A stretch of 64,000 nt of DNA from a virus: positions 1-64,000 of IMG/VR virus record IMGVR_UViG_3300032214_001034. One strand, given 5' to 3'. Under the pieces are notes generated by a model. It was given only the letters and a program-made list of their open reading frames with translations. It did not search any database and was not told the DNA's origin. Positions within the stretch are counted from its first letter, which is position 1, and each line of letters opens with the position of its first letter. Below, one piece after another: positions 43,439-64,000 of this stretch. The position numbers and the translations under genes are program-made.

Positions 43439-44656
43439 ATGGCTGTAAATAAGAATTTTGTAGTCAAAAATGGTTTAGAGGTCGATACCAACCTCATTCT
43501 CGCGGATGCTACAACGAATAGTGTTGGTATTGGCACCACAGTTCCCGAATATACCCTTCACGTTTTTGAAGGGAGTGGTATTGGTGCTACTACCGTTTAT
43601 GTTACTGGCGTAACAACATCCCTTCAGGGATTAAGAGTTGGTGCCGGTGGAACAGTTTTAACGGTTGTTGCAAGCCCAGGAATTGGATATTCTGTTGGTG
43701 TTGGTTCATCCCAACCAGAATATCTGTTAGATGTTCGTTCACCAGTTTCTACTGGACAAACAGCACTTTATGTTCAGGGTGATGTCAGAATTACTGGTGA
43801 TATAAATCTAGACGACATCACGCTTGATGATGCAACAATTCAAGATCTGAGGGTTCAGAACACTTTATTTGTTGGTGCTGATGGTGGAACTGGCGTTTCT
43901 ACCTTTGTTGGTTTCACTACATTCCAAAATAACGTTTATATTGCAGGTGTTACAACACTTGCTGCCAACGGAGGAATCACTACAACAGGTGGTGATTTTT
44001 ATGTCGGTGGAAACTTCTTTAGCAGTGGTGGAATAATTGTTGACAGCGACCTCTATATTATTGGTATTGCTACTGTTGGGACATTAGATGTCAACGATAA
44101 TGCAAATATTGATGGTAATCTTCTTGTAACAGGACTATCCACATTTGTTGGACTTAGTACCTTCCAGGATTACGTTTTTGTTCAAGATGGTCTAATTAAT
44201 GCTGGTGTTACAACATCAAATGCATATACAATTAATGGAACTCAAGTAGTTAGTTCTGCAAGAGAACTGCAGAATATTGCTTCTCTTGATGCAACTACAA
44301 CTGCAACGATTGAAGCAGCAATTGCTAATGCACCAAACACCTTTACTGATATTGAGGTTACTGGTCTTTCCACATTTGTTGGATTCAGTACATTCCAAAA
44401 TGATGTTTATGTTGCTGGTGTAGTAACTGCAACTTCATTCTATGGTAATGGATCAAATCTGACTGGTATTGCTACTGGTTTAACTGCAACAATTGGCGTT
44501 GGTTCTGAATCAACTTTTGTTGGTGCAGGAGTTACTGAAATTTACTTTGCAACAACCACAGGAACAAACGTAAGTGTTGTTTCTGCTGGAACAAGTGCAA
44601 CTGTTACAATTACTCCAGGTGTTTCACTTGGACTTGCAATCGCTCTTGGCGGTTAA
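43439..44656 (+). CDS. Tail-fibre shaft protein
   Basis: KNFVVKNGL, three TG.STFVG..TFQ..V repeats, ATSFYGNGSNLTGI, C-terminal GLAIALGG. Confidence 0.7.
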   Translation: MAVNKNFVVKNGLEVDTNLILADATTNSVGIGTTVPEYTLHVFEGSGIGATTVYVTGVTTSLQGLRVGAGGTVLTVVASPGIGYSVGVGSSQPEYLLDVRSPVSTGQTALYVQGDVRITGDINLDDITLDDATIQDLRVQNTLFVGADGGTGVSTFVGFTTFQNNVYIAGVTTLAANGGITTTGGDFYVGGNFFSSGGIIVDSDLYIIGIATVGTLDVNDNANIDGNLLVTGLSTFVGLSTFQDYVFVQDGLINAGVTTSNAYTINGTQVVSSARELQNIASLDATTTATIEAAIANAPNTFTDIEVTGLSTFVGFSTFQNDVYVAGVVTATSFYGNGSNLTGIATGLTATIGVGSESTFVGAGVTEIYFATTTGTNVSVVSAGTSATVTITPGVSLGLAIALGG

Positions 44657-44682
44657 TAAATACTCTTAACACATAAAGAAAA

Positions 44683-45222
44683 ATGGCAGAATCATTTTCA
44701 AACGCATTATCAAGAGCAGCAGGAATTGTAACAACCAGTTCTGCTGGTTCTATTGGAATCACGACTAACTTAATCACTGGTATTTCAACGGCATCAGTTT
44801 CTGTAGGTGATCTGATTGATAATGCAAACTTTATTGCGGGAACTAAAGTTTCTACAATTGGATCTGGGCAAGTTACTGCAGATAGAAATTCTACAAACAC
44901 TGCACCAACATCAGCTCAAAACGTCAAGTTCCTTGGTGTTACAAACGTCTATACTTCGCCATCAGCAACGAAGAGTATTCTGATTGGCGGAACTTTTGCT
45001 AATAACACTAATAATCAAGTAAATTTGACTGTTGAAGTTTTTGATAATAGTGCGGGAATCAGTGCTGCGATCGCAAGTAAGATTCCAGTTCCTGCAGGAA
45101 GTTCATTCGTCATCTCTGATACAGGTAAGACACTTTTAGAAGGTGATGATGTGTTGAGGGTATACTGTGATACTGCAAATGCAATTGATGTAAGCCTCAG
45201 CATTCTCACAGGAGTAGCGTGA
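44683..45222 (+). CDS. Fibre adaptor-like beta protein (type B)
   Basis: VYTSPSATKSILIG..AN...IPVPAGSSFVI...LLEGDDVLRV. Confidence 0.6.
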   Translation: MAESFSNALSRAAGIVTTSSAGSIGITTNLITGISTASVSVGDLIDNANFIAGTKVSTIGSGQVTADRNSTNTAPTSAQNVKFLGVTNVYTSPSATKSILIGGTFANNTNNQVNLTVEVFDNSAGISAAIASKIPVPAGSSFVISDTGKTLLEGDDVLRVYCDTANAIDVSLSILTGVA

Positions 45223-45223
45223 T

Positions 45224-46024
45224 ATGGCAGATCGTAACGGTTATATTGGAAGAGCTCCTGGTGATTCATCAGTAGTTGTTGCTAGACAGGTATTTTCTCC
45301 ATCAGGAGTTCAAACAAACTTTACGTTTGCATCTGGATATACTGTTGGTTATTTGGACGCATACCTGAATGGCGTTCGTCTGATTGAAGGTCAAGACTAT
45401 AGTGCAACTGATACATCAACTGTTGGTCTGACTAGTTTTGCTCAGAACGGTGATGTTCTTGAGTTAGTTGCATATAAAGCATTTAATGTTGCAACAATTG
45501 ACACTGCACCAGGAAATCTTACCGTTGGTGGATATATTTCTGCTGGTGGATCTATCACTGGATCTGCATTTTATGGTGATGGAAGTAACCTAACAGGAAT
45601 TTCTTCTGTTTCATTTGCAACTACAGCATTCACTCTTGCTAATAATGCAACAGGAATCAATGCAACATTTACTGGTAATGTGTCAATTGGTGGCACATTA
45701 ACGTATGAAGATGTAACAAATGTTGATGCGGTAGGAGTTATTACTGCAAGAAGCGGTATTGAACTTGGTGCTTCTGGGGTAGGTGGAACAATTACCTCTG
45801 GTGGAAATGCAACTTTTGCTGGAATTGTAACTGCAACTGGTGGATTTAATCTTGGTATTAGTTCTGCTGGATCTGTTATTACTTCAGGACCAGTAAAAAC
45901 TTTGAATTTTGTAGGAACCGGTAATACATTTGCAGTAAATGGAACTACCGTTGATATTAGTATTCAAGGTGGTGGTGGAGGAGGGATTACTTCTCTGGAT
46001 ATTACTTCATCATTATTCATTTAA
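45224..46024 (+). CDS. Tail-fibre shaft protein
   Basis: YIGRAP N-terminus, YLNGVRL..DY, LTYEDVTNVD, C-terminal DITSSLFI. Confidence 0.7.
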   Translation: MADRNGYIGRAPGDSSVVVARQVFSPSGVQTNFTFASGYTVGYLDAYLNGVRLIEGQDYSATDTSTVGLTSFAQNGDVLELVAYKAFNVATIDTAPGNLTVGGYISAGGSITGSAFYGDGSNLTGISSVSFATTAFTLANNATGINATFTGNVSIGGTLTYEDVTNVDAVGVITARSGIELGASGVGGTITSGGNATFAGIVTATGGFNLGISSAGSVITSGPVKTLNFVGTGNTFAVNGTTVDISIQGGGGGGITSLDITSSLFI

Positions 46025-46048
46025 ATAAATACCTAAAAAGATAAAGAG

Positions 46049-46447: not shown

Positions 46448-46449
46448 TT

Positions 46450-47448
46450 ATGAGCGTCAAATCATTTGGCAATCCATCATCAAGTTTTAGATACAGATTC
46501 GGTAGAACTGGAAATAGAGCTTCTAAGCCTTATGCAGTATCAATTCCAATATCTGCTTCTGGTGGAAATGTAAGTGCTCTGGAGCCAGGAAATGGATATA
46601 AGTATCATACATTTACAAGTCCAGGAACATTTACAGTAACTTCTGGTGTTGGTAATATTGAATATATTGTAGTTGCTGGTGGTGGCGGAGGAGGAGAATC
46701 TGGTGGTGGTGGTGCTGGTGGATTATTATCAAACTCTGTTGAAATGCCTTCTCCAACTAGACAGGCACCTTTTCCAGTTTCTGGACCAGTATCATATTCA
46801 GTTGTAATTGGTGGTGGTGGTAGTGCAGGTGTATCTGGTCCTGGCGCGGTTGATGGATCTCAAGGAAGTCCGTCTTCATTTGGACCAGTATCAACAAATG
46901 GTGGTGGAGGGGGAACATCGGCTGATGCACCATCTCCATTTGTTGGTGGATCAGGTGGTTCTGGTGGGGGTGCATCAACTCCTACAGCATTTGATCCTGG
47001 TGGAGCGGCAACTAACTATCCTGGACCAACACAACAAGGTTATCCTGGTGGTGGTGCATATGGATATTTGGCAGGAAATGGAAATAGTGGAGGTGGTGGT
47101 GGTGCCGGAGCAGCAGGTCAAGATGGAAGTCCGCCTGGAGGATCACCATTAAAAGGAGGTGATGGTGGAAATGGACTTCAGTTTCCTGCCTTTACTGGAC
47201 CTTTAATTGGAGTTCCTGCTCTTGCACCATTGAGTGGTTACTTTGCAGGTGGCGGCGGTGGCGGTTCTTGGGGGAATCCAGGTGGTGCTGGTGGTTTGGG
47301 TGGTGGTGTTCCTGGATCTGGTACTGGAACTACTCCCGCAGCTGCCCAAGCAAATACTGGAGGAGGTGGTGGTGGATCTGGATATCCACCTTGGGTTCCT
47401 GGTGGTGCTGGTGGTTCTGGCATCGTCATCATTCGTTACTTAGCATAA
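46450..47448 (+). CDS. Glycine-rich domain protein (single domain), putative adhesin
   Basis: ASGG...HTFTSPGTF...EYIVVAGGG...GGSGIVIIRY. Confidence 0.75.
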   Translation: MSVKSFGNPSSSFRYRFGRTGNRASKPYAVSIPISASGGNVSALEPGNGYKYHTFTSPGTFTVTSGVGNIEYIVVAGGGGGGESGGGGAGGLLSNSVEMPSPTRQAPFPVSGPVSYSVVIGGGGSAGVSGPGAVDGSQGSPSSFGPVSTNGGGGGTSADAPSPFVGGSGGSGGGASTPTAFDPGGAATNYPGPTQQGYPGGGAYGYLAGNGNSGGGGGAGAAGQDGSPPGGSPLKGGDGGNGLQFPAFTGPLIGVPALAPLSGYFAGGGGGGSWGNPGGAGGLGGGVPGSGTGTTPAAAQANTGGGGGGSGYPPWVPGGAGGSGIVIIRYLA

Positions 47449-47466
47449 ATATTCAAAAACTATAAA

Positions 47467-49452
47467 ATGGCATTAAGAGCACTCGGAAATCCACTTGCAA
47501 GTTTTATAGATTACCTAGCAAAGACTGGTACTGATGCTTCTACTCCACCACCAACCTTAGAAGGTTTAACAGCAACTGGTGGTGTGATTAGTGATTATGT
47601 TGATCCGGGATCTGGCGCAATTTATCGAGCACATATATTTAATTCTACGGGTACTTTTTCCGTAACTTCTGTCGGTGATTATGGTGATACTGTTGATTAT
47701 TTGCTTGTAGGTGGTGGTGGTGCCGGTGGAATGGGTTTAAATGGTGGTGGTGGTGGAGGAGCAGGAAGATACTTGACGGGCACTACTCCAATTCCATCAC
47801 CATCTTCTTTTTCAATTTCTGTTGGTGGTGGTGGTGCAATAAATTTTCCTGGAGATGGAATAACGGGATCTAATAGTGTTGCATCTTTCCCAGCAGGAAC
47901 AATCACCGCACAAGGAGGTGGTGGAGGAGGTGGAAATGCCAATGCTGGTCTTGCTGGCGGTTCTGGTGGTGGTGCAGGTAGAGATTCTAATGGTGCTGCT
48001 GGTGGATCTGCAACTCCTGGTCCTGGTGGAAATGCTGGTGGAACTTCTGGTTCTTCTACCTCTTTTTCCGCATCTGGTGGTGGTGGTGGTGCTGGGAGTG
48101 CTGGACAACCATTTCAAGCACCACCAGGACCTGGTGTAGAAGTTTCTGGTGGTGGTGGAAATGGACTTCCAAATAGTATTTCCGGAACTGAAACAATCTA
48201 TGCAGCAGGTGGAGGAGGGGCAGGAAGATTAAAAACTGCTGGTGGTTCCTCTGGTGTTGGTGGAGGAGGTGCTGGATATGCAGATCCCACTAATCCAACT
48301 GACCCAAATTACTATAAAGGTAGACAAAGCACTGGATCTGGTGGTGGAGGATCTGGGTATTCTTCACCATTTACTTGGAACCCACCACAAATTCCAGGTG
48401 GAACTGGTGCATCTGGCGTTGCTGTAATTAGATATCAAATAGGACAATTAACAGCAGCAGCAAAAGCAACTGGTGGTGCGATTAGTTATTATCAAGGACA
48501 AACCATTCATACCTTTACAAGTTCTGGTACTTTTACTTTACCAGCGTCTTATCCATCAATTTCAGCACAAATATTAGTTGTTGCTGGTGGTGGTGCAGGT
48601 GGATATAGGCATGGTGGTGGTGGAGGAGGAGGAGGTGTTGTCCACGTTCCTCTTGCAAATGGTTCAATTTCTAATGGAACTTATACTATAACTGTTGGTG
48701 GTGGTGGAGCAGCAAAAACTGTTGATTATGATGGGGGGGATGATGGAAGTCCTTCGTCATTTGGTCCACCTTCATCTGCTTCTGCACCAACTCATCTTCT
48801 TGCTCTTGGTGGAGGAGGTGGTGGAACTTGGCAACCTGCTACATCTGGTCCTTGGGGATCAGGACATCCAGGTGGTTCCGGTGGTGGAGAATATGGAAAT
48901 CCAGATCAATCTGGTGGAACTGGTTCTCAACCCGCACCAACGGTATTTGGTACATCAACCGGATATGGAACAAATGGTGGAAGTGGAATCAATTATCCAG
49001 GAGATGGTAGAATAGGTGGTGGAGGTGGTGGAGCAGGTGGAGCAGGTGTTCCTGGTGGACCTTCTGCACCAGAAACAGGAAATGGTGGACCCGGTATTCA
49101 AATACAAATAGCATCAAATCCAAATAATAACTACTATTGGGCTGGTGGTGGTGGTGCTGGTGCTTGGAATGCACCAGATTTTAGATCTGCTAATAAAGGA
49201 GTTGGTGGTGCTGGTGGTGGTGGCGGTGGATCATCTTGGGATGCTGGAGTTCCTGGTGGTCCTGGTGCTTCTGGTGGACTTGGAGTTGGTGGAACGGGAA
49301 CTGCTGGTGCAGTAAATATTGGTGGTGATGGGGCACAATCTACAGGTGGTGGTGGAGGTGGAAACGGTCAGTCGGACTATTCCACTTGGCCTGCTGTTGG
49401 AAGAGGTGGATTTGGTGGTTCTGGTATTGTTATTATTGCTTATCCTTCATAA
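47467..49452 (+). CDS. Glycine-rich domain protein (two domains), putative adhesin
   Basis: Two ATGG..H.F.S.GTF..V.GGG...SG...I.Y units; ends in IAYPS. Confidence 0.75.
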   Translation: MALRALGNPLASFIDYLAKTGTDASTPPPTLEGLTATGGVISDYVDPGSGAIYRAHIFNSTGTFSVTSVGDYGDTVDYLLVGGGGAGGMGLNGGGGGGAGRYLTGTTPIPSPSSFSISVGGGGAINFPGDGITGSNSVASFPAGTITAQGGGGGGGNANAGLAGGSGGGAGRDSNGAAGGSATPGPGGNAGGTSGSSTSFSASGGGGGAGSAGQPFQAPPGPGVEVSGGGGNGLPNSISGTETIYAAGGGGAGRLKTAGGSSGVGGGGAGYADPTNPTDPNYYKGRQSTGSGGGGSGYSSPFTWNPPQIPGGTGASGVAVIRYQIGQLTAAAKATGGAISYYQGQTIHTFTSSGTFTLPASYPSISAQILVVAGGGAGGYRHGGGGGGGGVVHVPLANGSISNGTYTITVGGGGAAKTVDYDGGDDGSPSSFGPPSSASAPTHLLALGGGGGGTWQPATSGPWGSGHPGGSGGGEYGNPDQSGGTGSQPAPTVFGTSTGYGTNGGSGINYPGDGRIGGGGGGAGGAGVPGGPSAPETGNGGPGIQIQIASNPNNNYYWAGGGGAGAWNAPDFRSANKGVGGAGGGGGGSSWDAGVPGGPGASGGLGVGGTGTAGAVNIGGDGAQSTGGGGGGNGQSDYSTWPAVGRGGFGGSGIVIIAYPS

Positions 49453-49455: not shown

Positions 49456-49470
49456 CTCAAAAAGCATAAA

Positions 49471-51447
49471 ATGGGCGTAAGATCGGTCAATAATTCACTA
49501 CAACAGTTTTTAGACACTTTTGTAAGAAGTGGTACTGATGCGTCTACCCCTTCTGTTGCGCCATCAGGATTAACAGCAACTGGTGGCGTTATTAGTGATT
49601 ATGTAGATGGTTCTAATGTTTATAGAGCACACATCTTTACATCAACAGGAACATTTTCAGTAAGTTCTATTGGATCTTATGGTTCTAATGTTGAATATCT
49701 CGTGGTTGCTGGTGGTGGAGGAGGTGGTGGACATAATACTGGTGGTGGAGGAGGTGCTGGAGGTTTAAGAACTAATCTTACCGGACATCCATTAGCAGGT
49801 TCAGCATTTCCAGTATCAACTTCGCCCGGATCTTATACAGTTACTATTGGATCTGGTGGAATAGGAGGAGCTCCCTCAGGAAATTCTGGCACTCAGGGTG
49901 GTCCATCATCTTTTGGTCCTATTACATCAACAGGTGGTGGATATGGTGGTAAAGGTGTAACTGCATCCCCAAATGCTGCTCCTGGTGGACCTGGTGGATC
50001 TGGTGGAGGTGGAGGTGGAGATGATACTGCTGGCCCATATCCCGGTGGTACTGGCACTTCCGGACAAGGAAATAATGGTGGATTTGGATATGCACCAGGA
50101 GCAAGAGGTGGCGGCGGCGGTGGAATAAGTGCCGAAGGAACTCCCGGTGCATCTGTTGCTGGTCCTGGTGGCGCAGGTGTTCAAGTTGCTATTGCTGGCC
50201 CACCAACATCTACTGGCATAGTTGGCGCATTAAATCCTGGTCCGGGTGAATATCAGTGGTTTGCTGGTGGTGGCGGCGGCGGTGGAAATGTCAATGCCGG
50301 AACTGGTGGTGTAGGTGGTGGTGGAACTGGTGGAACTGGAGGTGGACCTCCAGGAATACCATTTTCTGCTCCATCACGAGGAACTTATGCTACTGGAGGC
50401 GGTGGAGGTGGTGCCGCTGGATGGGGAACAGCAGTTCCTGGAGGTAATGGCGGTTCCGGAATCGTAGTAGTAAGATATAAAATTGGACAATTAACAGCAA
50501 CCGCAAAAGCAACTGGTGGTTCTATAAGTTACTATGATGGTAAGACAATTCATACCTTTACGACTTCTGGTACTTTTACTGCTCCAGGATCATTTAATGA
50601 GACTGTAGAATATGTTGTAATTGCTGGTGGTGGTAGTGGTGCTGCTGTATTTGGTGGAGGTGGTGCTGGTGGATACAGAGAAGGAAGTGTGCCAATTTCC
50701 GGTCCATCATCTACTACAATTCAAGTTGGAGCTGGTGCAGCAGGAGTTTCTTACCCTGCCGGTGGTGCATTATCTGGTTCACAAGGAACTTCATCTTATT
50801 TTGGAGCACCAATAACATCCGATGGTGGGGGTTTTGGTGCCAGTGGACCTGGTGTAGTTGGTGGACCTGGTGGATCTGGTGGTGGTGGATCCGACTGGGC
50901 AGCAACAGGAGCTGCTGGTGGACCGGCAACTGGATATCCAGGACCATCTCAACAAGGATTTCCTGGAGGAAGTGGATCTGGTGTTGATGCTGGCGGTGGC
51001 GGTGGTGGCGGCGCTGGCGGTGCGGGAGGAAATGGTTCTTCTCCATCTGGTGGACTTGGTGGATTGGGAAGACAAGTACCAGCAACATTTAGAAACCCAA
51101 AATCATCTACATCATTAGGATCTTCTGGACCAACGGGACCAGTTCCTGCAACAAATCCTGGAGGAGATACTAGTGGTCTATATTGGTTTGCAGGTGGTGG
51201 TGGTGGTGGAGCATATCACGGACCAACAGGAGCTAATCCAGCATCAACTGGTGGTGGTGGAGGAGGAGGGCCTGTCCCATCTCCATATGCAGGTGCTGGT
51301 AATGGTGGAATAAATCCAAATGGAAATGGTAGTCCCGGAAAGGAAAACACTGGTGGCGGAGGAGGAGGAGGAACTAGAGATCTTGTTACAAAAAGTGCCA
51401 GTGGATCTGGTGGTTCCGGAATAGTCCTAATTGCTTATCCTTCATAA
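49471..51447 (+). CDS. Glycine-rich domain protein (two domains), putative adhesin
   Basis: Same architecture as 47467; ends in IAYPS. Confidence 0.75.
   Translation: MGVRSVNNSLQQFLDTFVRSGTDASTPSVAPSGLTATGGVISDYVDGSNVYRAHIFTSTGTFSVSSIGSYGSNVEYLVVAGGGGGGGHNTGGGGGAGGLRTNLTGHPLAGSAFPVSTSPGSYTVTIGSGGIGGAPSGNSGTQGGPSSFGPITSTGGGYGGKGVTASPNAAPGGPGGSGGGGGGDDTAGPYPGGTGTSGQGNNGGFGYAPGARGGGGGGISAEGTPGASVAGPGGAGVQVAIAGPPTSTGIVGALNPGPGEYQWFAGGGGGGGNVNAGTGGVGGGGTGGTGGGPPGIPFSAPSRGTYATGGGGGGAAGWGTAVPGGNGGSGIVVVRYKIGQLTATAKATGGSISYYDGKTIHTFTTSGTFTAPGSFNETVEYVVIAGGGSGAAVFGGGGAGGYREGSVPISGPSSTTIQVGAGAAGVSYPAGGALSGSQGTSSYFGAPITSDGGGFGASGPGVVGGPGGSGGGGSDWAATGAAGGPATGYPGPSQQGFPGGSGSGVDAGGGGGGGAGGAGGNGSSPSGGLGGLGRQVPATFRNPKSSTSLGSSGPTGPVPATNPGGDTSGLYWFAGGGGGGAYHGPTGANPASTGGGGGGGPVPSPYAGAGNGGINPNGNGSPGKENTGGGGGGGTRDLVTKSASGSGGSGIVLIAYPS
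50488..50577 (+). repeat. Inter-domain nucleotide repeat block shared by four Gly-rich genes
   Basis: caattaacagcaaccgcaaaagcaactggtggttctataagtta is identical at 50488 and 53824; close variants at ~48445 and ~56485. Confidence 0.85.
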
Positions 51448-55030: not shown

Positions 55031-55432
55031 ATGGCTGCTCCGAATATAGTAAATGTTGCATCTATTGCAGGAATAACGACATATCACGCAGGTATTGCCG
55101 CAACTACTGGTGGTCGTGGTGCATTAGGTATTACAACTGTTGTTTCTAACGCAGCAGCAAGCGGAAAAGTTTTAAAAATTAACTCTTTAGTTGCAGCAGG
55201 AATTGGAAACACAACGGGAGTTACTTTACAACACTTCAATAACGTAAATCACGTTTCTGCATCAAGTACAGTTTCCATCGCAATGACTGTATCAGTACCA
55301 ACATACTCTACATTAGTACTGATCAGTAAAGAAAATTCAATATACTTAGAAGAAAATACCTCTCTTGGAGTCTTTGCTCAACCAGGCACAGGACGTATTG
55401 ATGTAGTTTGCTCTTACGAAGAAATTAGTTGA
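55031..55432 (+). CDS. Fibre adaptor-like beta protein (type B)
   Basis: MAAPNIV...SGKVLKINSL...VSVPTYSTLVLI...IYLEE...SYEEIS. Confidence 0.65.
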   Translation: MAAPNIVNVASIAGITTYHAGIAATTGGRGALGITTVVSNAAASGKVLKINSLVAAGIGNTTGVTLQHFNNVNHVSASSTVSIAMTVSVPTYSTLVLISKENSIYLEENTSLGVFAQPGTGRIDVVCSYEEIS

Positions 55433-55444: not shown

Positions 55445-57460
55445 ATGAGTTATCTTGGAAGAAGAATTGGTAAGTCACAGGATACTGCTACTGATACTGG
55501 AGATGGTGCAGGTGGTGGTCTTTTAGATCTTTTTACAAACGGATATTTTCAAAGACAAGGAAACATTTATAATGCTCCTGGAATAATACCACAAGGATTA
55601 ACAGCAACTGGTGGTATTATTAGTGATTATGTAGATGGATCGACGGTTTATAGAGCACATATCTTTACTTCATCAGGTACTTTTAGTGTAAGTTCTATTG
55701 GTGGTTATGGATCTAATGTAGAGTATCTTGTTGTTGCTGGTGGCGGCGGCGGTGGCGGAGGATGGCAGGCAGGTGGCGGAGGCGCTGGTGGGTACAGAAG
55801 TAGTGTATCTGGCGAAAGTTCTGGTGGTGGAGCAAGTGCAGAAAGCGCATTTCCAGTATCAGCATCTCCCGGTTCATATACAGTAACAATTGGTGCTGGT
55901 GGTGTTGGTGGTCAACCCAGTCCAGGATCATTCGGAGCATTTACTGGTAGTCAAGGAGGACCATCTTCATTTGGTCCTATAACGTCTACAGGTGGTGGTT
56001 ATGGTGCAACTTATATAAATCCCGGTGATAATCCAGGAGGACCTGGTGGTTCAGGTGGTGGTGCTGGTGATAGTGGAACTTCAGCAACCGCATCAGGAGG
56101 AACTGGTACTCCTGGACAGGGGTATAATGGTGGTGGTAGATCAGGTCCTTATGCACCAAACTATACCGGTGGCGGCGGCGGAGGCGCTGGCGGAGTTGGA
56201 TCTACCGGAGGTACTAGTCTTGCACCAGGTGGTAATGGTGTTGCATCATCTATTACAGGTTCTTCTGTGATAAGAGCTGGTGGTGGTGGAGGAGGATCAT
56301 ATAGTTTATCTGTGGGTGGAACAGGTGGTTCTGGTGGTGGTGGAACAGGTGGTGGAGGATCTCCAGCCACAAATTCAACTGAAGGAACTTACTCAACCGG
56401 CGGGGGCGGTGGTGGACAAGGTACATTAGCCGTTGGATCTAATGGTGGTTCTGGAATCGTAGTAGTAAGATATCAAATAGGTTTATTAACAGCAACCGCA
56501 AAAGCAACTGGTGGTGCTATTAGTTACTATGGTGGTAAGACTATTCATACCTTTACGAGTTCTGGTACTTTTGCAACAGAACCTAATTGGACTTCAACTA
56601 ATGTAGAGTATGTTGTAGTTGGTGGGGGGGCTGGTGGAGCAGGTGGGACTGGTGGTGCTGGTTCAGGTGGTGGTGGAGGTGCTGGTGGATTTATTACAAA
56701 TACAAATCATCCAATTGGCACTCATCCAGTATCAGTATCCGTTGTTGTTGGAGCAGGAGGTAGATTGGGATATGCTCCAGGACCTACTGCACCAGATACA
56801 AGAGGAACTAATGGATCTCCATCTTATTTTGGTCCATCATTAGTTGGTTATGGTGGTGGTCGTGGTAGTGGTGGATATCCAACACCATCACAATCTGCAG
56901 ATAATGGGGGATCTGGTGGTGGAGCACAGCCTCGTGCTGGTGCTGGTGCTCCTGATAATATTGGAGGTCTTGGTGATAGACAAACTGGAACTTCCACTCC
57001 TGCACCAATCACTCCACAAGGATTCCCTGGCGGTAATTCTTTAGGACCTGTTGCGATTGGTGGTGGTGGCGGAGGTGCAGGCGGCGCTGGTACTGATGGT
57101 GGACCAGGAGCAGCTCATGGTGGTATTGGAAAACAAGTTCCAGCGACATTTAGAAATCCATTATCAGCACCAGGACCAAATGGAGGTGGTTTAGGATTCC
57201 CTGGACCTTCCGGATCTTATTGGCTTGCTGGAGGTGGTGGAGGTGGTGGATGGTCTGCAACCGCAGGTGGATCAGGTGGTGGTCCTGGTGGACCTTATGC
57301 TGGTGCAGGTAGTGGAGGACCATCAAGTTCACCTAGTGATGGATTTGCTGCAAAAGAAAATTCTGGATCTGGTGGAGGCGGAGGTGGAGAAAATCCTGAT
57401 CCATTTAGTCCGGGTGCTTCGGGTGGTTCCGGAATCGTCCTCATTGCTTATCCTTCATAA
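55445..57460 (+). CDS. Glycine-rich domain protein (two domains), putative adhesin
   Basis: N-terminal YLGRRIG; same two-domain body; ends in IAYPS. Confidence 0.75.
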   Translation: MSYLGRRIGKSQDTATDTGDGAGGGLLDLFTNGYFQRQGNIYNAPGIIPQGLTATGGIISDYVDGSTVYRAHIFTSSGTFSVSSIGGYGSNVEYLVVAGGGGGGGGWQAGGGGAGGYRSSVSGESSGGGASAESAFPVSASPGSYTVTIGAGGVGGQPSPGSFGAFTGSQGGPSSFGPITSTGGGYGATYINPGDNPGGPGGSGGGAGDSGTSATASGGTGTPGQGYNGGGRSGPYAPNYTGGGGGGAGGVGSTGGTSLAPGGNGVASSITGSSVIRAGGGGGGSYSLSVGGTGGSGGGGTGGGGSPATNSTEGTYSTGGGGGGQGTLAVGSNGGSGIVVVRYQIGLLTATAKATGGAISYYGGKTIHTFTSSGTFATEPNWTSTNVEYVVVGGGAGGAGGTGGAGSGGGGGAGGFITNTNHPIGTHPVSVSVVVGAGGRLGYAPGPTAPDTRGTNGSPSYFGPSLVGYGGGRGSGGYPTPSQSADNGGSGGGAQPRAGAGAPDNIGGLGDRQTGTSTPAPITPQGFPGGNSLGPVAIGGGGGGAGGAGTDGGPGAAHGGIGKQVPATFRNPLSAPGPNGGGLGFPGPSGSYWLAGGGGGGGWSATAGGSGGGPGGPYAGAGSGGPSSSPSDGFAAKENSGSGGGGGGENPDPFSPGASGGSGIVLIAYPS

Positions 57461-57481: not shown

Positions 57482-58279
57482 ATGTCGCAGCTATACGTTG
57501 ACAACATCAAAAACAGAACAGGTGGATCAGTTGGATTTCCGACTGGAATTGTTGTAACGGGGGTTGCGACTGCTACGCAATTTAGTGGAAACATCACAGG
57601 AACAACAGCAACATTCTCTGGTAATGTGTCAGTTGGAGGCACATTAAGTTATGAAGATGTAACGAATGTTGATTCAGTCGGATTGATCACTGCAAGAAAT
57701 GGTATTGATGTAACAGCGGGTGGTATTAATGCTGTTGGTGTTGTAAGTGCTACTAGTTTTGTCGGAACTGCATTAAGTATTTCTGGTATTGGAACTATCA
57801 GCGACCTAAGTATAAAAGCAGCTGCAGAAACAGTATCAGTCGCCTCAACAAGTGATTTGGGTGGGGGAAAGGTTGTAATTGAGTGTGATGCAACAAATGG
57901 AACAGTATTTACTCACAATCTTGTGAATGGAACTGTTGGTATTGTTTCATTAAAAAATTTCCCAGTTAGAGGAAATTCTGTTACAACATATTCAATTATA
58001 TTCAACCAACTTCCAACAACTCCTGCAGGGGCTGGTAATACAACTCCAGCAACAGGTATTGGAACTAATATTACATTAACTCCTTCAGGTGTTTCTGGAT
58101 TTACAACATCAGCAAGAGTTGCAACAGCATCTACTGTAACTCTTTCAACAACTGCAAATGATGTAGATATTGTAACTCTTGCAGTTCATTACAATGGTTC
58201 TGGAACAGGAACTCCAGGAAATTACAGAGTATTTGCAACAGGAAATACTGGATATAGATTCGGAACTATTGGATTCTGA
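57482..58279 (+). CDS. Fibre connector with a fused C-terminal beta domain
   Basis: MSQLYVDNIKNRTG, LSYEDVTNVD and TLSTTANDVDIV. Confidence 0.65.
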   Translation: MSQLYVDNIKNRTGGSVGFPTGIVVTGVATATQFSGNITGTTATFSGNVSVGGTLSYEDVTNVDSVGLITARNGIDVTAGGINAVGVVSATSFVGTALSISGIGTISDLSIKAAAETVSVASTSDLGGGKVVIECDATNGTVFTHNLVNGTVGIVSLKNFPVRGNSVTTYSIIFNQLPTTPAGAGNTTPATGIGTNITLTPSGVSGFTTSARVATASTVTLSTTANDVDIVTLAVHYNGSGTGTPGNYRVFATGNTGYRFGTIGF

Positions 58280-58292
58280 TAGGAGGTAGATT

Positions 58293-59300
58293 ATGGCACC
58301 ATTTTTTACTGGAATTGCAAAGAATATAGGTGGTTATGGATTTGGTAGAAGAAGAAGTGGGCCCGTTCCATTTTCTGCTACTGGAGGTACTTTAGTTTCT
58401 CCGGGAAATGGATATAATTATCACGTTTTTCTTACACCCGGAACTTTTACAGTAACTTCAGGAACTGCTAATGTAGAATATCTGGTAGTTGCTGGTGGTG
58501 GAGCAGGTGCTTATGATGGAAGATCCCCATCAGACCGACAAGCAACAGGTGGTGGTGCTGGAGGTTTAAGAACTAACTCACCAACAGCACCAGCACCATT
58601 AAAGGCACCAGATTTACCTCTAGACGCAGGAACATATCCTGTTAGTGTTGGTCCTGGAGGAGTTGGTGGTTTTGTTACTGGACCCGGTTCTGATGGATTT
58701 AGAGTAGGAAATAAGGGCGGAGATTCAACATTTCATACTATAACTTCAAACGCAGGTGGTGGTGGAGGAGGTCATTATCCACCAGCTGGAGGTAATGTCT
58801 ATCCAGATATAACAGTATATAAAGGTGGATCTGGATCTAGTGGAAATGGACCATCAACATCTGATGGAAACTTTCCACCAACTTCTCCGCCACAAGGAAA
58901 TCCTTCTGGTGCTGCAAGCGGACCTGGAGCTAGTGTTGGTGGTGCTGGTGGTGCTGGTGGTGTTGGGGGTCCAGGATTAACTGGTGCTGGCGGCGCTGGA
59001 TTGGCAGTTCCTGCTTTTGCTGCGCCACTAATTTCGCCGGCAATCCCCGCACCAGTTCAACCAACTTGGATACCTGCTGTTGGACCTACAGGGTTGTATG
59101 CTGGTGGTGGTGGATCTACGAGTAATTTTTCTGATGGAACAATTATTGGACCTGGTGGACCGGGTGGAGGCGGAAGTGCTGGTAGACCTGCAGGATCTGC
59201 AGCAGTTACTTATACAGGTGGTGGTGGTGGGGGATCTGGTGGATCTGCAACTTTTGCATCTGGTGGATCCGGAATTGTTATTGTTAGATATGTTGCATAA
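58293..59300 (+). CDS. Glycine-rich domain protein (single domain), putative adhesin
   Basis: ATGG..PGNGYNYHVF..PGTF...GGSGIVIVRY; paralogue of 46450. Confidence 0.75.
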   Translation: MAPFFTGIAKNIGGYGFGRRRSGPVPFSATGGTLVSPGNGYNYHVFLTPGTFTVTSGTANVEYLVVAGGGAGAYDGRSPSDRQATGGGAGGLRTNSPTAPAPLKAPDLPLDAGTYPVSVGPGGVGGFVTGPGSDGFRVGNKGGDSTFHTITSNAGGGGGGHYPPAGGNVYPDITVYKGGSGSSGNGPSTSDGNFPPTSPPQGNPSGAASGPGASVGGAGGAGGVGGPGLTGAGGAGLAVPAFAAPLISPAIPAPVQPTWIPAVGPTGLYAGGGGSTSNFSDGTIIGPGGPGGGGSAGRPAGSAAVTYTGGGGGGSGGSATFASGGSGIVIVRYVA

Positions 59301-59303
59301 AGT

Positions 59304-59332
59304 TTGACACTCCAACAAACATCCTATATAAT
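59304..59332 (+). promoter_or_regulatory. Consensus sigma70 (early) promoter for the oxygenase/halogenase operon
   Basis: TTGACA, 17 bp spacer, TATAAT. Confidence 0.85.
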
Positions 59333-59355
59333 ATCACTGAATACATTATTCAAAT

Positions 59356-59976
59356 ATGGCATTTCAATCAATTTGGTATTTTTCTGATCTACCAGAAGAA
59401 GTAGTAGATCTTGTAGAACGAGACCTTTCAGAAAAGTTCGAAGAGCAAATGGCAGACTCCAGATTGCATGGAGACGCACTGAACAAAGATAAACGAAACT
59501 CACAAAACGCTTGGATCCCCACCACACATTGGGTTGGTGGATTCGTATGGCACTATATTGAACGTGCAAACCGCGAGAACTTCCTCTATGACCTTCGTTG
59601 TATTGATGGAGAATCAATGCAGTTCACGAAGTATAGTGAAGGACAGTTCTATGGTTGGCATAATGACGCAGGTTTAGCGACTCAATACAAACCTGTAAGT
59701 GTTGGTAATCGTCAGGATGGTCTGGCACAAGATTTCTTGAATGAGAATATTGAACTTGTACGTAAACTTTCATTCGTGGTCCAACTCTCTGACCCCGATG
59801 ATTATGAAGGTGGCAATCTCCAACTTCTTGATGAAGCAGGGAATAGTTATATTGCTCCCCGTAAGCGTGGCACTGTGATTCTGTTTGATTCCCGCACACA
59901 ACATAGAGTTCTTAAAGTTACAAAAGGAACCCGTAAGAGTTTGGTAGGTTGGTGCGTAGGCAGCCGTTGGAAATAG
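59356..59976 (+). CDS. 2OG-Fe(II) oxygenase (prolyl-4-hydroxylase/PKHD-like)
   Basis: YGWHND, RKLS, YEGG and FDS..QHRV..VTKGTRKSLV. Confidence 0.9.
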   Translation: MAFQSIWYFSDLPEEVVDLVERDLSEKFEEQMADSRLHGDALNKDKRNSQNAWIPTTHWVGGFVWHYIERANRENFLYDLRCIDGESMQFTKYSEGQFYGWHNDAGLATQYKPVSVGNRQDGLAQDFLNENIELVRKLSFVVQLSDPDDYEGGNLQLLDEAGNSYIAPRKRGTVILFDSRTQHRVLKVTKGTRKSLVGWCVGSRWK

Positions 59977-60025
59977 AAACTTCGGTGGAACTGACTAAAT
60001 AGTTATATCTATATTGAATAAAACT

Positions 60026-60736
60026 ATGGAAAATCATTATGTTTACTATTCTTATGAGGAGTTTGGGAGGGGTTACATAGGTTGTAGGACCTGCGAATGT
60101 CTCCCAGAAGAAGATCAATATATGGGGTCTTTTACTGATGAAACATTCAATCCAACCAACAAGATAATCCTTGAAACTTTTTCTACAAGAAAAGAAGCAC
60201 TTCAAGCAGAAGTAGATCTCCATAAGTTTTATCAAGTAGACAAAAATTCTCACTTTGCTAATAAAGCAAGACAAAAAACAACTGGATTTTATTATTCATT
60301 TAAAGGAGCAATTCGCACAGAAGAATACAAAAAGAAAATGAGCGAAAGACTTAAAGGTAGAGAAATAAAACCAGAATGGATTGAAAAAATGAAAGAAAAT
60401 CTAAAACCTGCTTTTGGTGAAGATAATCATTTTTATGGAAAAAATCACACAGAAAAATCTAGAAAAGAAATTTCAAATTCCCTCAAAGAATATTATACAA
60501 ATAATTCACATCCTTGGTCTGGTAGAAAACATAGTGAAGAATCAAAAGTAAAATTTAGAATAAAAAACTCTGGTGAAAATAATCCAAATTTTGGAAAAAT
60601 ACAAAGTGAAGAAACAAAGGAAAAAGTTAGATTAGCAAAAATTGGTAAAAATTGGTGGTCTAATCAAATGGAAGAAAAATTTTGTAAAGAATGTCCTGGT
60701 GAAGGATGGAAACTTGGTAGAAAGAAAAGGAGGTAA
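60026..60736 (+). CDS. Free-standing GIY-YIG homing endonuclease with NUMOD3-type repeats
   Basis: YVY...YIG, YMGS, EAL.AE and (G)K.H(T/S)EE.K.K repeats; late motif TAAATA at 59996-60001. Confidence 0.82.
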   Translation: MENHYVYYSYEEFGRGYIGCRTCECLPEEDQYMGSFTDETFNPTNKIILETFSTRKEALQAEVDLHKFYQVDKNSHFANKARQKTTGFYYSFKGAIRTEEYKKKMSERLKGREIKPEWIEKMKENLKPAFGEDNHFYGKNHTEKSRKEISNSLKEYYTNNSHPWSGRKHSEESKVKFRIKNSGENNPNFGKIQSEETKEKVRLAKIGKNWWSNQMEEKFCKECPGEGWKLGRKKRR

Positions 60737-60739
60737 GTT

Positions 60740-61462
60740 ATGGCAGAACAAATGAGCGAACTGCAACTAATGATGCAGGAAAGGATGAATACGGGAACTG
60801 CTTGGACTCGTAATGAATCCTTTGAAAAGAATGGATATTTGGTAATCAAAGACCTTTGGGACCCAGAAGAACTTTATCATCCTCTGCCACCAGAACGTGG
60901 ACAGATGAACTGGTGGGGTAAAAAGATTGACCAGTTTACTCATACACCAGTAGAACAACAGGTTGAAGGTTCACTTGCGCGTTATTGGCACCCACAATAT
61001 CGTCAGATTCACTGTGGTATTCGCACAAAACTAGAAGAAGCACTGGGTCGTAAACTTTATAATACTTATTATTATGATAGATATTACTTCCCTGGTCAGG
61101 AACTTACACGTCACGCAGACCGTGATGCCTGTGAGATTTCTGTGACGGTTCATATCAGCACTAATCTGGAAGGTAAGGATGCTGATTGGCCGATCTTTAT
61201 TAAGACACCAGACCAATACGCAGACAAAAAGAAAACCCAGGTATTAGTTCCTGGTGAGAACCGTTCTGTGGTTCTCAAAGCAGGTGATGGTATGGTTTAT
61301 AAAGGTTGTGAACGCCCACACTGGCGTGATCCGATGCCTGGTGCAAAGAAGAATAAAAAACTGTTTGGTAAAACTTCTGAACTTTATTTTCATCAGATCT
61401 TTTTTCACTACGTGCTTCAAGATGGACAACGTGCCCACTGTGCTTGGGATAGAGCACGATGA
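60740..61462 (+). CDS. 2OG-Fe(II) oxygenase
   Basis: LTRHADRDACEISVT, WPIFI, GDGMVYKGCERPHWR and QIFFHYV. Confidence 0.8.
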   Translation: MAEQMSELQLMMQERMNTGTAWTRNESFEKNGYLVIKDLWDPEELYHPLPPERGQMNWWGKKIDQFTHTPVEQQVEGSLARYWHPQYRQIHCGIRTKLEEALGRKLYNTYYYDRYYFPGQELTRHADRDACEISVTVHISTNLEGKDADWPIFIKTPDQYADKKKTQVLVPGENRSVVLKAGDGMVYKGCERPHWRDPMPGAKKNKKLFGKTSELYFHQIFFHYVLQDGQRAHCAWDRAR

Positions 61463-62010
61463 AAACTCCACTTTTTGAATACCCTTCTTATCAATATCAA
61501 ATTGATGATTGGGATTTTAAAAAGAAGGGACTGCTAAATCGTATCAACTCTCAAAAGTTTGTAAGGACTACACTTCAAACTTTTGAGACCGACAGACAAA
61601 CAAACAAGAAGTCATATCTACATTACTTCCAAGACCTTATCAAACCTCAACTGTTTGAGTTTTGTCGGGAAGCAGAAGTTTCTTGTAGTATGACTGATTG
61701 TTGGTCTGTGAGATATAAACAAGGAGACCATCAGACCATTCACAATCATCGTAGTTGGGGATTTTCTGGTGTTCTTTATGTTGAGTATGATCCCAAACTT
61801 CATACTCCTACTTGTTTCGTTGCTCCTTGGCAAGACCCAAGAACTGATACAACAACATTAGCATATCCACAAAATGTAAAGGAGGGAACATTAGTGATTG
61901 TTCCTTCTTATACTTTACATTTTGTACATCCCAATCAAGTAAGAAAGCAGAGAACGATTATATCTTTTGACTTACTTCCCAAACTACCAGAACACCAAGC
62001 AATCCAGTGA
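61459..62010 (+). CDS. 2OG-Fe(II) oxygenase (HxH type)
   Basis: W..Y..GD..IHNH..FSGVLYV, EGTLVIVPSYTLHFV.PN and RTIISFD. Confidence 0.8.
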   Translation: MKTPLFEYPSYQYQIDDWDFKKKGLLNRINSQKFVRTTLQTFETDRQTNKKSYLHYFQDLIKPQLFEFCREAEVSCSMTDCWSVRYKQGDHQTIHNHRSWGFSGVLYVEYDPKLHTPTCFVAPWQDPRTDTTTLAYPQNVKEGTLVIVPSYTLHFVHPNQVRKQRTIISFDLLPKLPEHQAIQ

Positions 62011-63428
62011 AAATAGTTATTGTAGGAGGCGGAACCGCAGGATGGATTTCCGCCCTCATTCTTCAAAAGGAAACAGATCATAACATCACTTTGATTGATA
62101 GTTCTTCTATCGGACCATTAGGTGTTGGTGAAAGTACAACAGGACTCTTTGGACAAGTTATTCGTGCATACTTGTCTGAGGAGGACTTTGTTGAAAAGTG
62201 TGGTTTAACTCCTAAATTAGGAACACAATTTATCGGATGGTCCGATAAAGATTTTTATTCTCCATTAGAAGGTACATTCTCAGCACATGATGAGTTTGAT
62301 TATGCCTTCTATTATGGATTAGAAAACTCAAGACTGAATGATTATTCTGTATTCAGTTTATTTGCAAGTCAAGATAAGATTAATTTTAATAAGACAACTA
62401 CAAAAGAAAAGTTTGTCTCTGATAGAAGGTATGCATATCATTTAGATACTTACAAAACAATTGCATATCTAAAAGAAAAATGTGTTGAATCTGGTGTCCA
62501 ATTTATTGATTCAAAAGTTGTAGATATTTCTTTAGATAAATTCAGAAACGTAAATCAAATCTATACAGAAGACTCTGCGATAGAGTGTGATTTTGTAATT
62601 GACTGTAGTGGTTTCAATCGTACAGTCATATCAGCATATAATCCTAACTTTGTATCTTATGAGAAATGGATGAGTGTCAATACAGGACTTCCATTTAACT
62701 TAAGTTGGGATGAGATTGAATATAAAAAACCTGTTACTACATCAAGAGCTTTATCTTGTGGTTGGATGTGGATGATTCCAACACAACATAGTATTGGTTG
62801 TGGAATTGTATATGACAATAACTTTGCAACACAAGATGAAATAGTTGCAGAAGTCAATGAAATACTTGGAGTCAATATAAAAATAAGAAAAGAAATTAAA
62901 TTTAGATCTGGAAGACTGGATCAATCTTTGTGTCATAATGTTGCATCAATTGGCACTTGCTATTCATTCTTGGAACCATTACAAGCAACAAGTATTCATA
63001 CAACAATTCTACAAATAGAACGATTGGTTCATCTATTAGAGAATAGTATTACTGTAGATGACTATAATCTTTTTTGTGCAGATGTAGTTGATAATTATGC
63101 TGACTTTGTATCATTACATTATCAATTTAAGCATATTAATAATGAGTTCTGGCAAAGTAGAATTCCAAGAGAATATACAGCAGAAATGATTGAAAAATCA
63201 AAGAGACAAGCATTAACACCATATGATTATGATATTAATCGAGGACATTATGAACTAGTTGGTCATAATTTATGGAGTTATATACTTGCTGGTGGTCATT
63301 TAGTAACTCATCAAAGAATAAGTTATACGGAAGAGCAGTTAAATAATATTCAACTTTGGGAAAATCAAATTCCAGAAGTTTTAGAGAACTCTATGACATT
63401 CACCGATTTTCTGGGGATGTATAAATAA
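62007..63428 (+). CDS. Flavin-dependent (tryptophan) halogenase family protein
   Basis: GGGTAGW, GVGEST, K in TPKLG, IDCSGF, WMWMIP and FLEPLQATSI. Confidence 0.85.
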   Translation: MKIVIVGGGTAGWISALILQKETDHNITLIDSSSIGPLGVGESTTGLFGQVIRAYLSEEDFVEKCGLTPKLGTQFIGWSDKDFYSPLEGTFSAHDEFDYAFYYGLENSRLNDYSVFSLFASQDKINFNKTTTKEKFVSDRRYAYHLDTYKTIAYLKEKCVESGVQFIDSKVVDISLDKFRNVNQIYTEDSAIECDFVIDCSGFNRTVISAYNPNFVSYEKWMSVNTGLPFNLSWDEIEYKKPVTTSRALSCGWMWMIPTQHSIGCGIVYDNNFATQDEIVAEVNEILGVNIKIRKEIKFRSGRLDQSLCHNVASIGTCYSFLEPLQATSIHTTILQIERLVHLLENSITVDDYNLFCADVVDNYADFVSLHYQFKHINNEFWQSRIPREYTAEMIEKSKRQALTPYDYDINRGHYELVGHNLWSYILAGGHLVTHQRISYTEEQLNNIQLWENQIPEVLENSMTFTDFLGMYK

Positions 63429-63443
63429 CTAGAAAGTCATAAA

Positions 63444-63851
63444 ATGACAAGAGCAAGAGACCTAGCAAGATTAGGCAATAGCCAAGCACTTTCGGTTGAT
63501 AGTAACTTTAATGTTGGTATTAACTCCACACAACCCGATTCAAAGTTAGATGTTGTTGGTGTTGTTAGTGCTACTTCATTTTATGGTGATGGTTCAAACT
63601 TAACTGGTATTGCTGCTACTGATACAGTAAGCACCAGTTCTTTAAACGTTATTGGTATTTCCACTCTCGGTGGATTTACTACTTTTGGTAATAATGCTTT
63701 TATTGCGGGTATTGTAACTGCTACTAGTTTCAGCGGAACAGTCCCATCATCAAACTTAAGTGGAGCATTACCTGCTCTTGATGGTTCTGCACTTACAAAT
63801 CTCAATATTCCTGCAGGTTTTAACGAACTTGATGCAGCTTTGTTTAACTAA
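63444..63851 (+). CDS. Fibre shaft/connector protein
   Basis: MTRARDLA, ATSFYGDGSNLTGI, GALPALDGSALTN, C-terminal ELDAALFN. Confidence 0.7.
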   Translation: MTRARDLARLGNSQALSVDSNFNVGINSTQPDSKLDVVGVVSATSFYGDGSNLTGIAATDTVSTSSLNVIGISTLGGFTTFGNNAFIAGIVTATSFSGTVPSSNLSGALPALDGSALTNLNIPAGFNELDAALFN

Positions 63852-63873
63852 ATAATACAAAAAGTATATACCA

Positions 63874-64000
63874 ATGGGACTTAAAAGAACTAAACTCTTA
63901 GGAATTCAAGCAGTTACTGGTATTAATACCGTTGGTATTTTGACGGTTGGCACCACTCCAACTGCTGGTGGTGTTGGTATTGCATCAACCACTTATCTGC
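63874..64000 (+). CDS. Fibre adaptor-like protein type A (partial)
   Basis: MGLKRTKLLGIQAVTGINTVGILTVG...ASTTYL is a clear paralogue of the 46049 N-terminus. Confidence 0.65.
   Translation, partial: MGLKRTKLLGIQAVTGINTVGILTVGTTPTAGGVGIASTTYL

Follow-up and report, generated by a model that had tools for sequence, protein, structure and literature searches.

Predicted jelly-roll proteins as possible joints between tail-fibre modules in the fibre island of a T4-like cyanomyovirus

The DNA considered here is a stretch of 64,000 nucleotides (nt), positions 1 to 64,000 of IMG/VR virus record IMGVR_UViG_3300032214_001034 and hereafter the window, which is part of a 74.5-kilobase (kb) contig of a T4-like cyanomyovirus whose DNA weakly matches that of Synechococcus phages S-SM2 and Bellamy. 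From 43.4 kb onward it carries a dense late-gene run on the + strand, composed of fibre segments, small proteins of 120-180 amino acids (aa) and glycine-rich proteins of 330-670 aa, and broken at 59.3-63.4 kb by an oxygenase/halogenase block. Our subject is the small proteins, which fall into two families (type A and type B), and the short peptides that end the gene before and begin the gene after each of them. An initial annotation made from the sequence had read this island as a recurring order of shaft, adaptor and tip in which the C-terminal peptide of the shaft predicts the class of the adaptor, and a direct check of the contig returned all of its coordinates and peptides exactly. The features concerned are the following, the words root, plug, socket and connector standing for proposed roles.

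43439-44656, + strand: g3, root fibre segment, 405 aa; C-terminus ..GLAIALGG, the type B plug
44683-45222, + strand: g4, type B connector, 179 aa, phrog_26609
45224-46024, + strand: g5, second fibre segment, 266 aa; N-terminus MADRNGYIGR (YIG socket partner), C-terminus ..DITSSLFI (type A plug)
46022-46027, + strand: TAAATA, beginning at the g5 stop codon
46049-46447, + strand: g6, type A connector, 132 aa, phrog_20100
46450-47448, + strand: g7, Gly_rich_2 tip, directly behind adaptor g6
47467-49452, + strand: g8, Gly_rich_2 tip
49471-51447, + strand: g9, Gly_rich_2 tip by paralogy
51468-52160, + strand: g10, 230 aa; N-terminal domain like that of g5, with MAIGRP replacing YIGR; C-terminus ..DVLQIGDL
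52160-52393, + strand: g11, mini-segment of 77 aa; MS-type N-terminus; C-terminus ..DWRDSSLF, a type A plug
52416-52778, + strand: g12, type A connector, 120 aa
52780-54744, + strand: g13, two-domain Gly_rich_2 tip, starting 1 nt past g12
54765-55001, + strand: g14, mini-segment of 78 aa; MS-type N-terminus; C-terminus ..GKAIALSMVFG, a type B plug
55031-55432, + strand: g15, type B connector, 133 aa, with no PHROG or Pfam match
55445-57460, + strand: g16, Gly_rich_2 tip; N-terminus MSYLGRR
57482-58279, + strand: g17, fibre segment; MS-type N-terminus; end ..GYRFGTIGF
58293-59300, + strand: g18, Gly_rich_2 tip; start MAPFF..GFGRRR
63444-63851, + strand: g24, fibre segment, 135 aa; end ..ELDAALFN, a type A plug
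63874-64275 in the contig (the window ends at 64000), + strand: g25, type A connector, 133 aa in the contig
64291-65325 in the contig, + strand: g26, Gly_rich_2 tip, 344 aa, following g25 past the window end

Type A proteins thus follow the ends of g5 (..DITSSLFI, before g6), g11 (..DWRDSSLF, before g12) and g24 (..ELDAALFN, before g25), and type B proteins those of g3 (..GLAIALGG, before g4) and g14 (..GKAIALSMVFG, before g15). The genes after both type B proteins of the window start with Y(I/L)GR, as had been pointed out: MADRNGYIGR in g5, which begins 1 nt past the g4 stop codon, and MSYLGRR in g16. The common MS.(L/I).V..(I/L) start ascribed to three connectors is likewise present, as MSSLRVTTL in g11, MSKIQVDEI in g14 and MSQLYVDNI in g17. 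The tips g7, g8 and g9 share an A1-type N-terminal peptide, M-x-x-K/R-x-x-x-N..F, and g7 is the only one of the three to adjoin an adaptor. At the proximal end of the island the N-terminal ~136 aa of g3, whose homologue is Bellamy gp29, resemble a baseplate-wedge or fibre anchor (phrog_8215, E 3e-40), and at the distal end the pattern runs on beyond the window, from g24 to g25 to g26.

We tabulated the genes around type A relatives of 29-98% identity in 69 viral-contig loci and around g4 relatives in 19, and counted 763 distinct gene junctions in 89 related loci plus the contig. An ..LF(x) end is followed by a type A protein at 62 junctions and by another protein at 8, with no type A protein lacking such an end before it (Fisher p 7e-83), and a strict IALG/VFG end is followed by a type B protein at 27 junctions and by any other protein at none, with 7 of the 34 type B proteins lacking the strict motif and 3 of these 7 having a near-motif (p 1e-43); both p values overstate the case, since the junctions are not phylogenetically independent. 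Every type A protein that has an upstream gene follows one of the ends ..D(I/V)T(A/S)xLF(x), ..ELDAALF(N/S), ..DWRDSSLF or ..(I)LxVMLF(T/A), in which L and F are the sole invariant positions, and the proteins bearing these ends range from 37 to >1300 aa and are beta-repeat or collagen-like G-x-y shafts. (Collagen-like shafts with an ..LF end before type A were seen in related loci L063 and L066 and in S-CBWM1 gp85, L106:6072-6332.) The next gene's N-terminal motif is also specific to the adaptor class. The protein downstream of type A is almost always glycine-rich and begins M-(G/A/S)-x-(K/R), and a YIG start follows type B in 28 of 34 cases against a background of 8/602. Relatives of g4 always stand behind ..(S/T)(L/I)GL(A/V)IALG(G/A/S) and always before a MADRNGYIGR-like start, which lies -1 to 2 nt from the adaptor stop; the closer relatives of g15 follow ..GKA(I/A)A(L/M)(S/A)(M/I)VFG. 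The gene-order grammar and the prediction of adaptor class from the C-terminal peptide, as originally proposed, therefore hold in the contig and in about 90 related contigs (62/62 for type A; 27/34 for type B, plus the 3 near-motif cases).

The rule extends to cultured phages. By tblastn, Bellamy is the sole cultured phage with type A, and the whole scheme is repeated in its gp29-gp44, annotated as hypothetical or 'tail fiber'. Type B homologues were found by the same means in the Pelagibacter podophages HTVC010P and HTVC106P, SAR116 phage HMO-2011, Roseobacter phage CRP-13, OM43 myophage Melnitz (two copies), Rhizobium phage RHph_I1_18, cyanophage S-TIM5, Delftia phage PhiW-14 and Yersinia phage vB_Yru_GN1. 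The upstream end in all type B trios inspected is ..A(L/M)AIALG or a close variant (..AMAIAL, ..ALSIALG, ..IWAIVMG), and the downstream start is M.Y(I/L)G, MPHIGN, MGAFIGN or MALAGFIG. Across phage families these trios have no DNA similarity to one another, and it is this recurrence in unrelated families that speaks for the independence of the motif rule. Gene-order statistics across other phage genomes, a check suggested by the initial annotation, thus bring out motif/adaptor co-occurrence both among the 763 junctions and, for type B, in at least 9 other phage groups. In phage S-SCSM1 a long tail fibre of 1478 aa ending ..PFILALGGN is followed by a type B protein of 112 aa, open reading frame (ORF) 27 (profile E 1.2e-7), and then by a second fibre protein. 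The best BFVD match, with a template-modelling (TM) score of 0.90, is the type A protein of the unrelated phage S-CBWM1, which stands behind a collagen-like 'tail fiber protein' of 86 aa ending ..PLFFF. The same phage encodes, as gp16 (L104:8001-8396, annotated 'putative lectin'), a clear g15-like protein with the same MAAPNI start and ..YEEIS end, and a g15-like protein of phage DSL-LC04 is likewise annotated 'putative lectin'.

At these junctions it is the end peptides, and not the bodies of the proteins that carry them, that go with the adaptor. Over 50 distinct trios of type A, the Spearman correlation of adaptor identity was 0.57 with the C-terminal 12 aa upstream and 0.57 with the N-terminal 30 aa of the tip, but low with the upstream body (0.20) and nil with the tip body (-0.05). 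Adaptor identity hence tracks the flanking end peptides rather than the bodies of the neighbours, and mean pairwise identity is 58% between type A proteins and 35% between tip bodies. The classes of N-end and C-end motif combine freely on different bodies: ..LF ends occur with YIG (15), MS (18), MAVNK/MTRAR (4) and other (28) starts, and MS starts occur with LF, VFG, GFRxGxxG and YEVFG ends. The codons of ELDAALFN and DITxSLF differ at synonymous sites, which indicates constraint on the peptide rather than on a DNA anchor, and for the same reason DNA-level anchors were rejected as the only cause of the conserved ends.

The expression layout ties each small protein to one of its neighbours. TAAATA, which looks like a T4-type late-promoter core, overlaps or abuts the proximal stop codon before all five adaptors of the window (at 44657, 46022, 52391, 55002 and 63849, + strand), the copy at 44657 lying directly after the g3 stop codon, and the related loci show the same at almost every type A junction. 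It is also present 21-24 nt upstream of g8, g9, g10, g14, g17 and g24; altogether 12 of the 24 listed genes have it 21-29 nt upstream, its density on the + strand being 0.79 per kb. It is absent before g5, g7, g11, g13, g16, g18 and g26, whose starts lie between a 1-nt overlap with the previous gene and 15 nt past it, the g10 stop, for instance, overlapping the g11 start (ATGA). Judged by this layout, the late units are likely to comprise an adaptor with its distal partner, the proximal shaft belonging to the preceding unit, and the adaptor is likely coupled in transcription and translation to that distal partner, the shaft, although its peptide 'predicts' the adaptor, standing outside this coupling. 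A fused shaft-adaptor product made by read-through or frameshifting was rejected in view of spacers of 18-35 nt that contain stop codons and the promoter-like TAAATA.

Type A proteins (~120-135 aa) correspond to phrog_20100, listed as of unknown function, which g6 and g12 match over their full length (E 3.6e-44 and 1.7e-24); g6 is 31% identical to g12 (E 1e-14) and 57% to g25 (60% over the full alignment). In ocean metagenomes the family comprises >5000 clusters at 90% identity, all named 'hypothetical' and with no Pfam family. For type B, g4 is a full-length profile match to phrog_26609 (E 8.7e-82; function likewise unknown), and g15, without a PHROG match at E 0.01, is tied to g4 by a weak blastp relation (31% over 97 aa, E 2.6e-5), by a joint profile of type B and by its fold. 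Searches of Pfam at E 0.1 gave no match for g4, g6, g12 or g15, the chaperone families (Caudo_TAP/Tfa, T4 gp38-type and Pam3 gp25-type) included, and none for the segments g3, g5, g10, g11, g14 and g17 and the adaptors, Phage_T4_gp36 included. Sequence searches of the PDB with type A, type B and tip g7 retrieved no solved relative, and phmmer with g7 gave no gp38 match.

AlphaFold2 (AF2) models of g12 (predicted local distance difference test, pLDDT, 87.5) and g15 (pLDDT 70) show the same 8-stranded jelly roll in an all-beta single domain. The type A model matches the KHP40 trimeric cement protein 7dou_4 (Z 10.6, root-mean-square deviation 2.6, 107 aligned), the STIV turret 4ind (Z 9.8), the HFTV1 turret 8qpg_TD (Z 9.7) and an Ena pilus subunit (Z 9.0), and the type B model matches 9i0y (Z 9.3), 8qpg_TD (9.2), 7a02 (9.1), 4ind (8.8) and 7dou (8.6). 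Both thus retrieve the same solved structures (cement proteins, turrets, Ena pilus subunits and nucleoplasmin), with Z of 8.7-10.6 for type A and 8.0-9.3 for type B; further matches are CBM32 and CBM62 at Z 7-8 and, by Foldseek, a Photorhabdus TNF-like lectin. The link between the types rests on this fold and on marginal blastp matches, and going by the models they have one fold and probably form one superfamily. Hence, of the two adaptor classes originally drawn, their standing as distinct sequence families with motifs of their own is borne out, and what falls away is the idea that they are unrelated. Among 331 representative clusters the family is nearly always stand-alone and 100-140 aa long, the few longer members being tandem double jelly rolls or odd chimeras, and a Rosetta-stone search of these clusters found no clean fibre-adaptor or adaptor-tip fusion. 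Two metagenomic proteins, P0037 and P0131, look like chimeras, in the forms of a tip N-terminus with a type A C-terminal half and of a type A N-terminal half with a fibre repeat ending ..DWRDSSLF; they may be natural recombinants or assembly artefacts.

Six tips in the window are assigned to Gly_rich_2 (PF21722, gathering threshold 24.3 bits), five of them by scanning and g9 by close paralogy. Scores are 82 bits for g7, 102 for g8, 104 for g13, 81.5 for g16 and 75 for g18, with 47 for g26 beyond the window end, at one or two domains each, and the scanned tips matched only PF21722 in Pfam, with no GP38-family match. A gene ahead of the island, g2 (40961-43399, 812 aa, phrog_24848), has no Pfam match and a glycine-rich C-terminal end, ..ARVIIRLAT, resembling the ..GIVIIRYLA end of Gly_rich_2 tips. 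Two further junction types dispense with an adaptor. In one, an end of the form ..(I/L)D(V/I)LQ(I/L)xDL stands before a fibre segment whose start is MSxLxVxxI, the two genes often overlapping by ATGA; this type occurs in the window (51468-52393), in Bellamy (gp35/gp36 and gp52/gp53) and in related loci L031 and L080, and the MSxLxVxxI start also opens cassettes located after glycine-rich tips. In the other, ends of the form ..G(Y/F)RxGxxG(F/V) are followed by Gly_rich_2 tips starting MAP..G(F)G, as in the pair g17-g18 (57482-59300) and at 66747-68600 of the contig. A conserved protein of ~140 aa belonging to phrog_7759 (function unknown) has a glycine-rich tip before it in three different phages, at 65446-65874 of the contig (L001:2446-2874), as Bellamy gp34 and as Melnitz gp172; members start MAHFAQLDENN.. 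or MSHYAKVKDG.. and, by analogy with Pam3 gp25 after gp24, are candidate tip chaperones. The block that breaks the island, at 59356-63428, holds three 2-oxoglutarate-Fe(II) (2OG-Fe(II)) oxygenase-like genes and one flavin-dependent halogenase-like gene, and Bellamy has oxygenases at the equivalent place.

We propose that the small proteins of 110-180 aa are structural joints that plug distal modules onto the proximal fibre ends of multi-segment tail fibres, and give this reading a probability of about 0.58. It is favoured because the motif-adaptor-motif rule is near-absolute in the 89 related loci, and because the jelly roll common to both families is also found in oligomeric virion parts. A place in the virion is further suggested by database labels of type B homologues: S-SCSM1 ORF27 has the GenBank product 'virion protein', the paper behind that record reporting 45 proteins identified in CsCl-purified virions by mass spectrometry (PMC9602691), and the homologues in HTVC010P, S-TIM5 and HMO-2011 are labelled structural. 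An adaptor would be co-produced with its distal partner from the TAAATA at the proximal stop, the gap from adaptor to next gene being 1-15 nt (abutting or overlapping in some related loci). The joint would then bind the short C-terminal peptide of the proximal segment, ..D-x-x-x-L-F(x) for type A and ..A-I-A-L-G(G) or ..M-V-F-G for type B, and its other side would hold the distal N-terminal peptide, M-x-x-K/R.. of a Gly_rich_2 adhesin-like tip for type A and ..Y-I/L-G.. of a shaft or tip for type B. Four chains could be assembled in this way: from the baseplate through g3, type B g4, g5 and type A g6 to g7, g8 or g9; from g10 through g11 and type A g12 to g13; from g14 through type B g15 to g16; and from g24 through type A g25 to g26. 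Physical binding, the presence of these proteins in the virion, their stoichiometry and the root of each chain are what we infer here.

Several observations weigh against this proposal. Adjacency and co-inheritance alone produce much of the co-variation described above and inflate all measures of it. No separate adaptor accompanies tips g8 and g9, more distant g15 relatives (loci L003, L042-44 and L071) break the upstream motif rule, the profile comparison of types A and B is weak (hhalign probability 21%, E 1e-3), and the g15-like gp16 of S-CBWM1 sits among metabolic (sugar-nucleotide, tRNA) genes with neither a fibre neighbour nor an upstream motif. The structural labels in HTVC010P, S-TIM5 and HMO-2011 are of untraced basis, as is the place of S-SCSM1 ORF27 in the per-ORF mass-spectrometry list, and the labels in the RCA-phage paper and the pelagiphage preprint are homology-based only. 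Two more such points, the place of the gene directly behind a fibre gene and a precedent in Pam3, belong to the main rival of the joint proposal, namely that the small jelly rolls are fibre-assembly chaperones which bind the upstream C-terminal peptide or the nascent downstream tip, aid its folding, trimerisation or attachment and leave before maturation. This we consider unlikely, though the gene position is the classic one for chaperones, as with T4 gp38/gp57, lambda Tfa, Mu U and P2 G, and the coupling of the adaptor to the downstream gene in one putative late unit would fit as well. In cyanophage Pam3 the beta-sandwich domain of gp25 binds the glycine-rich fibre tip, and the protein is released before maturation (PMC9608196). 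On the other side, the AF2 models are all-beta and have no helical trimerising domain of the Tfa or gp25 type, the Pfam searches with g4, g6, g12 and g15 brought up no chaperone family, and the S-SCSM1 and other type B homologues carry the virion and structural labels mentioned above. Separate candidates for the task are already annotated nearby: in the Yersinia GN1 record a tail fiber assembly protein adjoins the type B trio, and in Melnitz a 'tail assembly chaperone' is annotated within a type B cassette, an HMO-2011 protein labelled tail fiber protein sharing its C-terminal motif. Finally, a chaperone serving one neighbour leaves the class-specific motifs on both neighbours unexplained.

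Were the conserved ends mainly recombination joints for module swapping, the small proteins having an unrelated role such as that of lectin-like accessory binders, the decoupling of the bodies on either side from the joint and the free recombination of N- and C-end classes would be expected, and the 'putative lectin' annotation of the g15-like proteins of S-CBWM1 and DSL-LC04 would be in keeping. We hold this to be very unlikely: residues are fixed while codons vary synonymously, type B motifs persist across families without DNA similarity, and anchors for recombination have no need to match the class of the protein they enclose. The least probable of the readings considered, and one to which we attach little weight, takes the small proteins for distal accessory or decoration domains at fibre knees that are lectin-like and themselves aid host binding. 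The same labels and the fold matches to CBM32, CBM62 and the Photorhabdus TNF-like lectin point that way; these matches are generic, however, and the adaptors are far more conserved than the tips (58% vs 35%), the opposite of what an arms-race receptor binder would show.

If the small proteins are indeed structural joints, a far-reaching extension can be sketched, which we regard as doubtful in its entirety: a two-letter joint code widespread in tailed phages, with A standing for ..LF plus M-x-x-K/R and B for ..AIALG plus YIG, supplemented by adaptor-free joints and allowing combinatorial or branched display of at least 6-8 adhesins per virion or burst. A trimeric proximal fibre could then carry three jelly-roll joints, each accepting any tip with the cognate N-peptide, so that the g6 joint might serve g7, g8 and g9 alike, and the g10 end might serve g11, g14 and g17. 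Insertion of one promoter-adaptor-tip cassette would then confer a new specificity.

Multi-segment fibres built from T4 gp34-37 with a knee protein, the glycine-rich gp38 adhesin attached non-covalently in T2 and S16, and docking of the K1-5, CBA120 and KP32 type are established. Docking through short terminal modules or adaptor proteins is thus known from other phages, and the principle is not new. Our literature searches found no description of the two connector families, and what appears to be undescribed is the existence of two jelly-roll connector families with cognate C- and N-terminal motifs, the breadth of type B and the metagenomic abundance of type A. Like the T4-type long tail fibre with the gp38 of T2/T6/S16, the island has separately encoded segments, a small knee-like protein, a glycine-rich distal adhesin and genes in assembly order, and the MS-type N-terminus presumably recalls that of T4 gp36. 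It differs from the T4-type fibre in that Pfam detects no sequence relationship for segments or adaptors, in that the joints are predicted jelly rolls of 110-180 aa in two families with cognate terminal peptides, and in having many parallel cassettes instead of one fibre; the tips belong to PF21722 and not, as T2/T6/S16 gp38, to the GP38 family. The K1-5/SP6 adaptor, CBA120/ViI and Klebsiella KP32-type systems are alike in docking interchangeable receptor-binding proteins on a common anchor by short terminal modules and in encoding several specificities side by side. There, however, N-terminal domains dock on the tail anchor, whereas here a separate jelly roll is proposed to lie between C- and N-peptides, possibly repeated along the chain, and the system occurs in marine myo- and podophages. 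The K1-5 adaptor system is discussed in PMC4819975.

Pam3 gp24/gp25 (PMC9608196) resembles the present case as a cyanophage fibre with a TNF-like jelly roll by a glycine-rich receptor-binding domain and a small protein containing a beta-sandwich encoded next door. In Pam3, however, jelly roll and glycine-rich domain are in one polypeptide and the small protein, a chaperone, carries a helical trimeriser and is released (PMC9608196), whereas here a separate all-beta protein is encoded before the tip gene. The best structural matches to both models (7a02, 9i0y, 8pdz, 7dou, 8qpg and 4ind; Z 8.0-10.6) are Ena appendage subunits and cement and turret jelly rolls, small jelly rolls from which oligomeric fibres or decorations are made, but the likeness is at the level of fold only, at 6-16% identity, with no sign of homology or of a shared assembly chemistry. 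The Ena fibre is built as a terminal peptide of one subunit docks into neighbouring ones.

Should the joint proposal be true, an end motif, an adaptor family and the next start motif would suffice to order fibre parts into chains from sequence in thousands of uncultured marine phages, and two unnamed protein families would have a function. It would explain how cyanomyoviruses carry and turn over many adhesins, pointing to the units exchanged as host range shifts, and the plug-and-socket pairs would lend themselves to swapping receptor-binding modules between phages of laboratory strains. The type B joint, present in phages of SAR11, SAR116, Roseobacter, OM43, Rhizobium and cyanobacteria, would then be a general building element of fibres and not a cyanophage curiosity.

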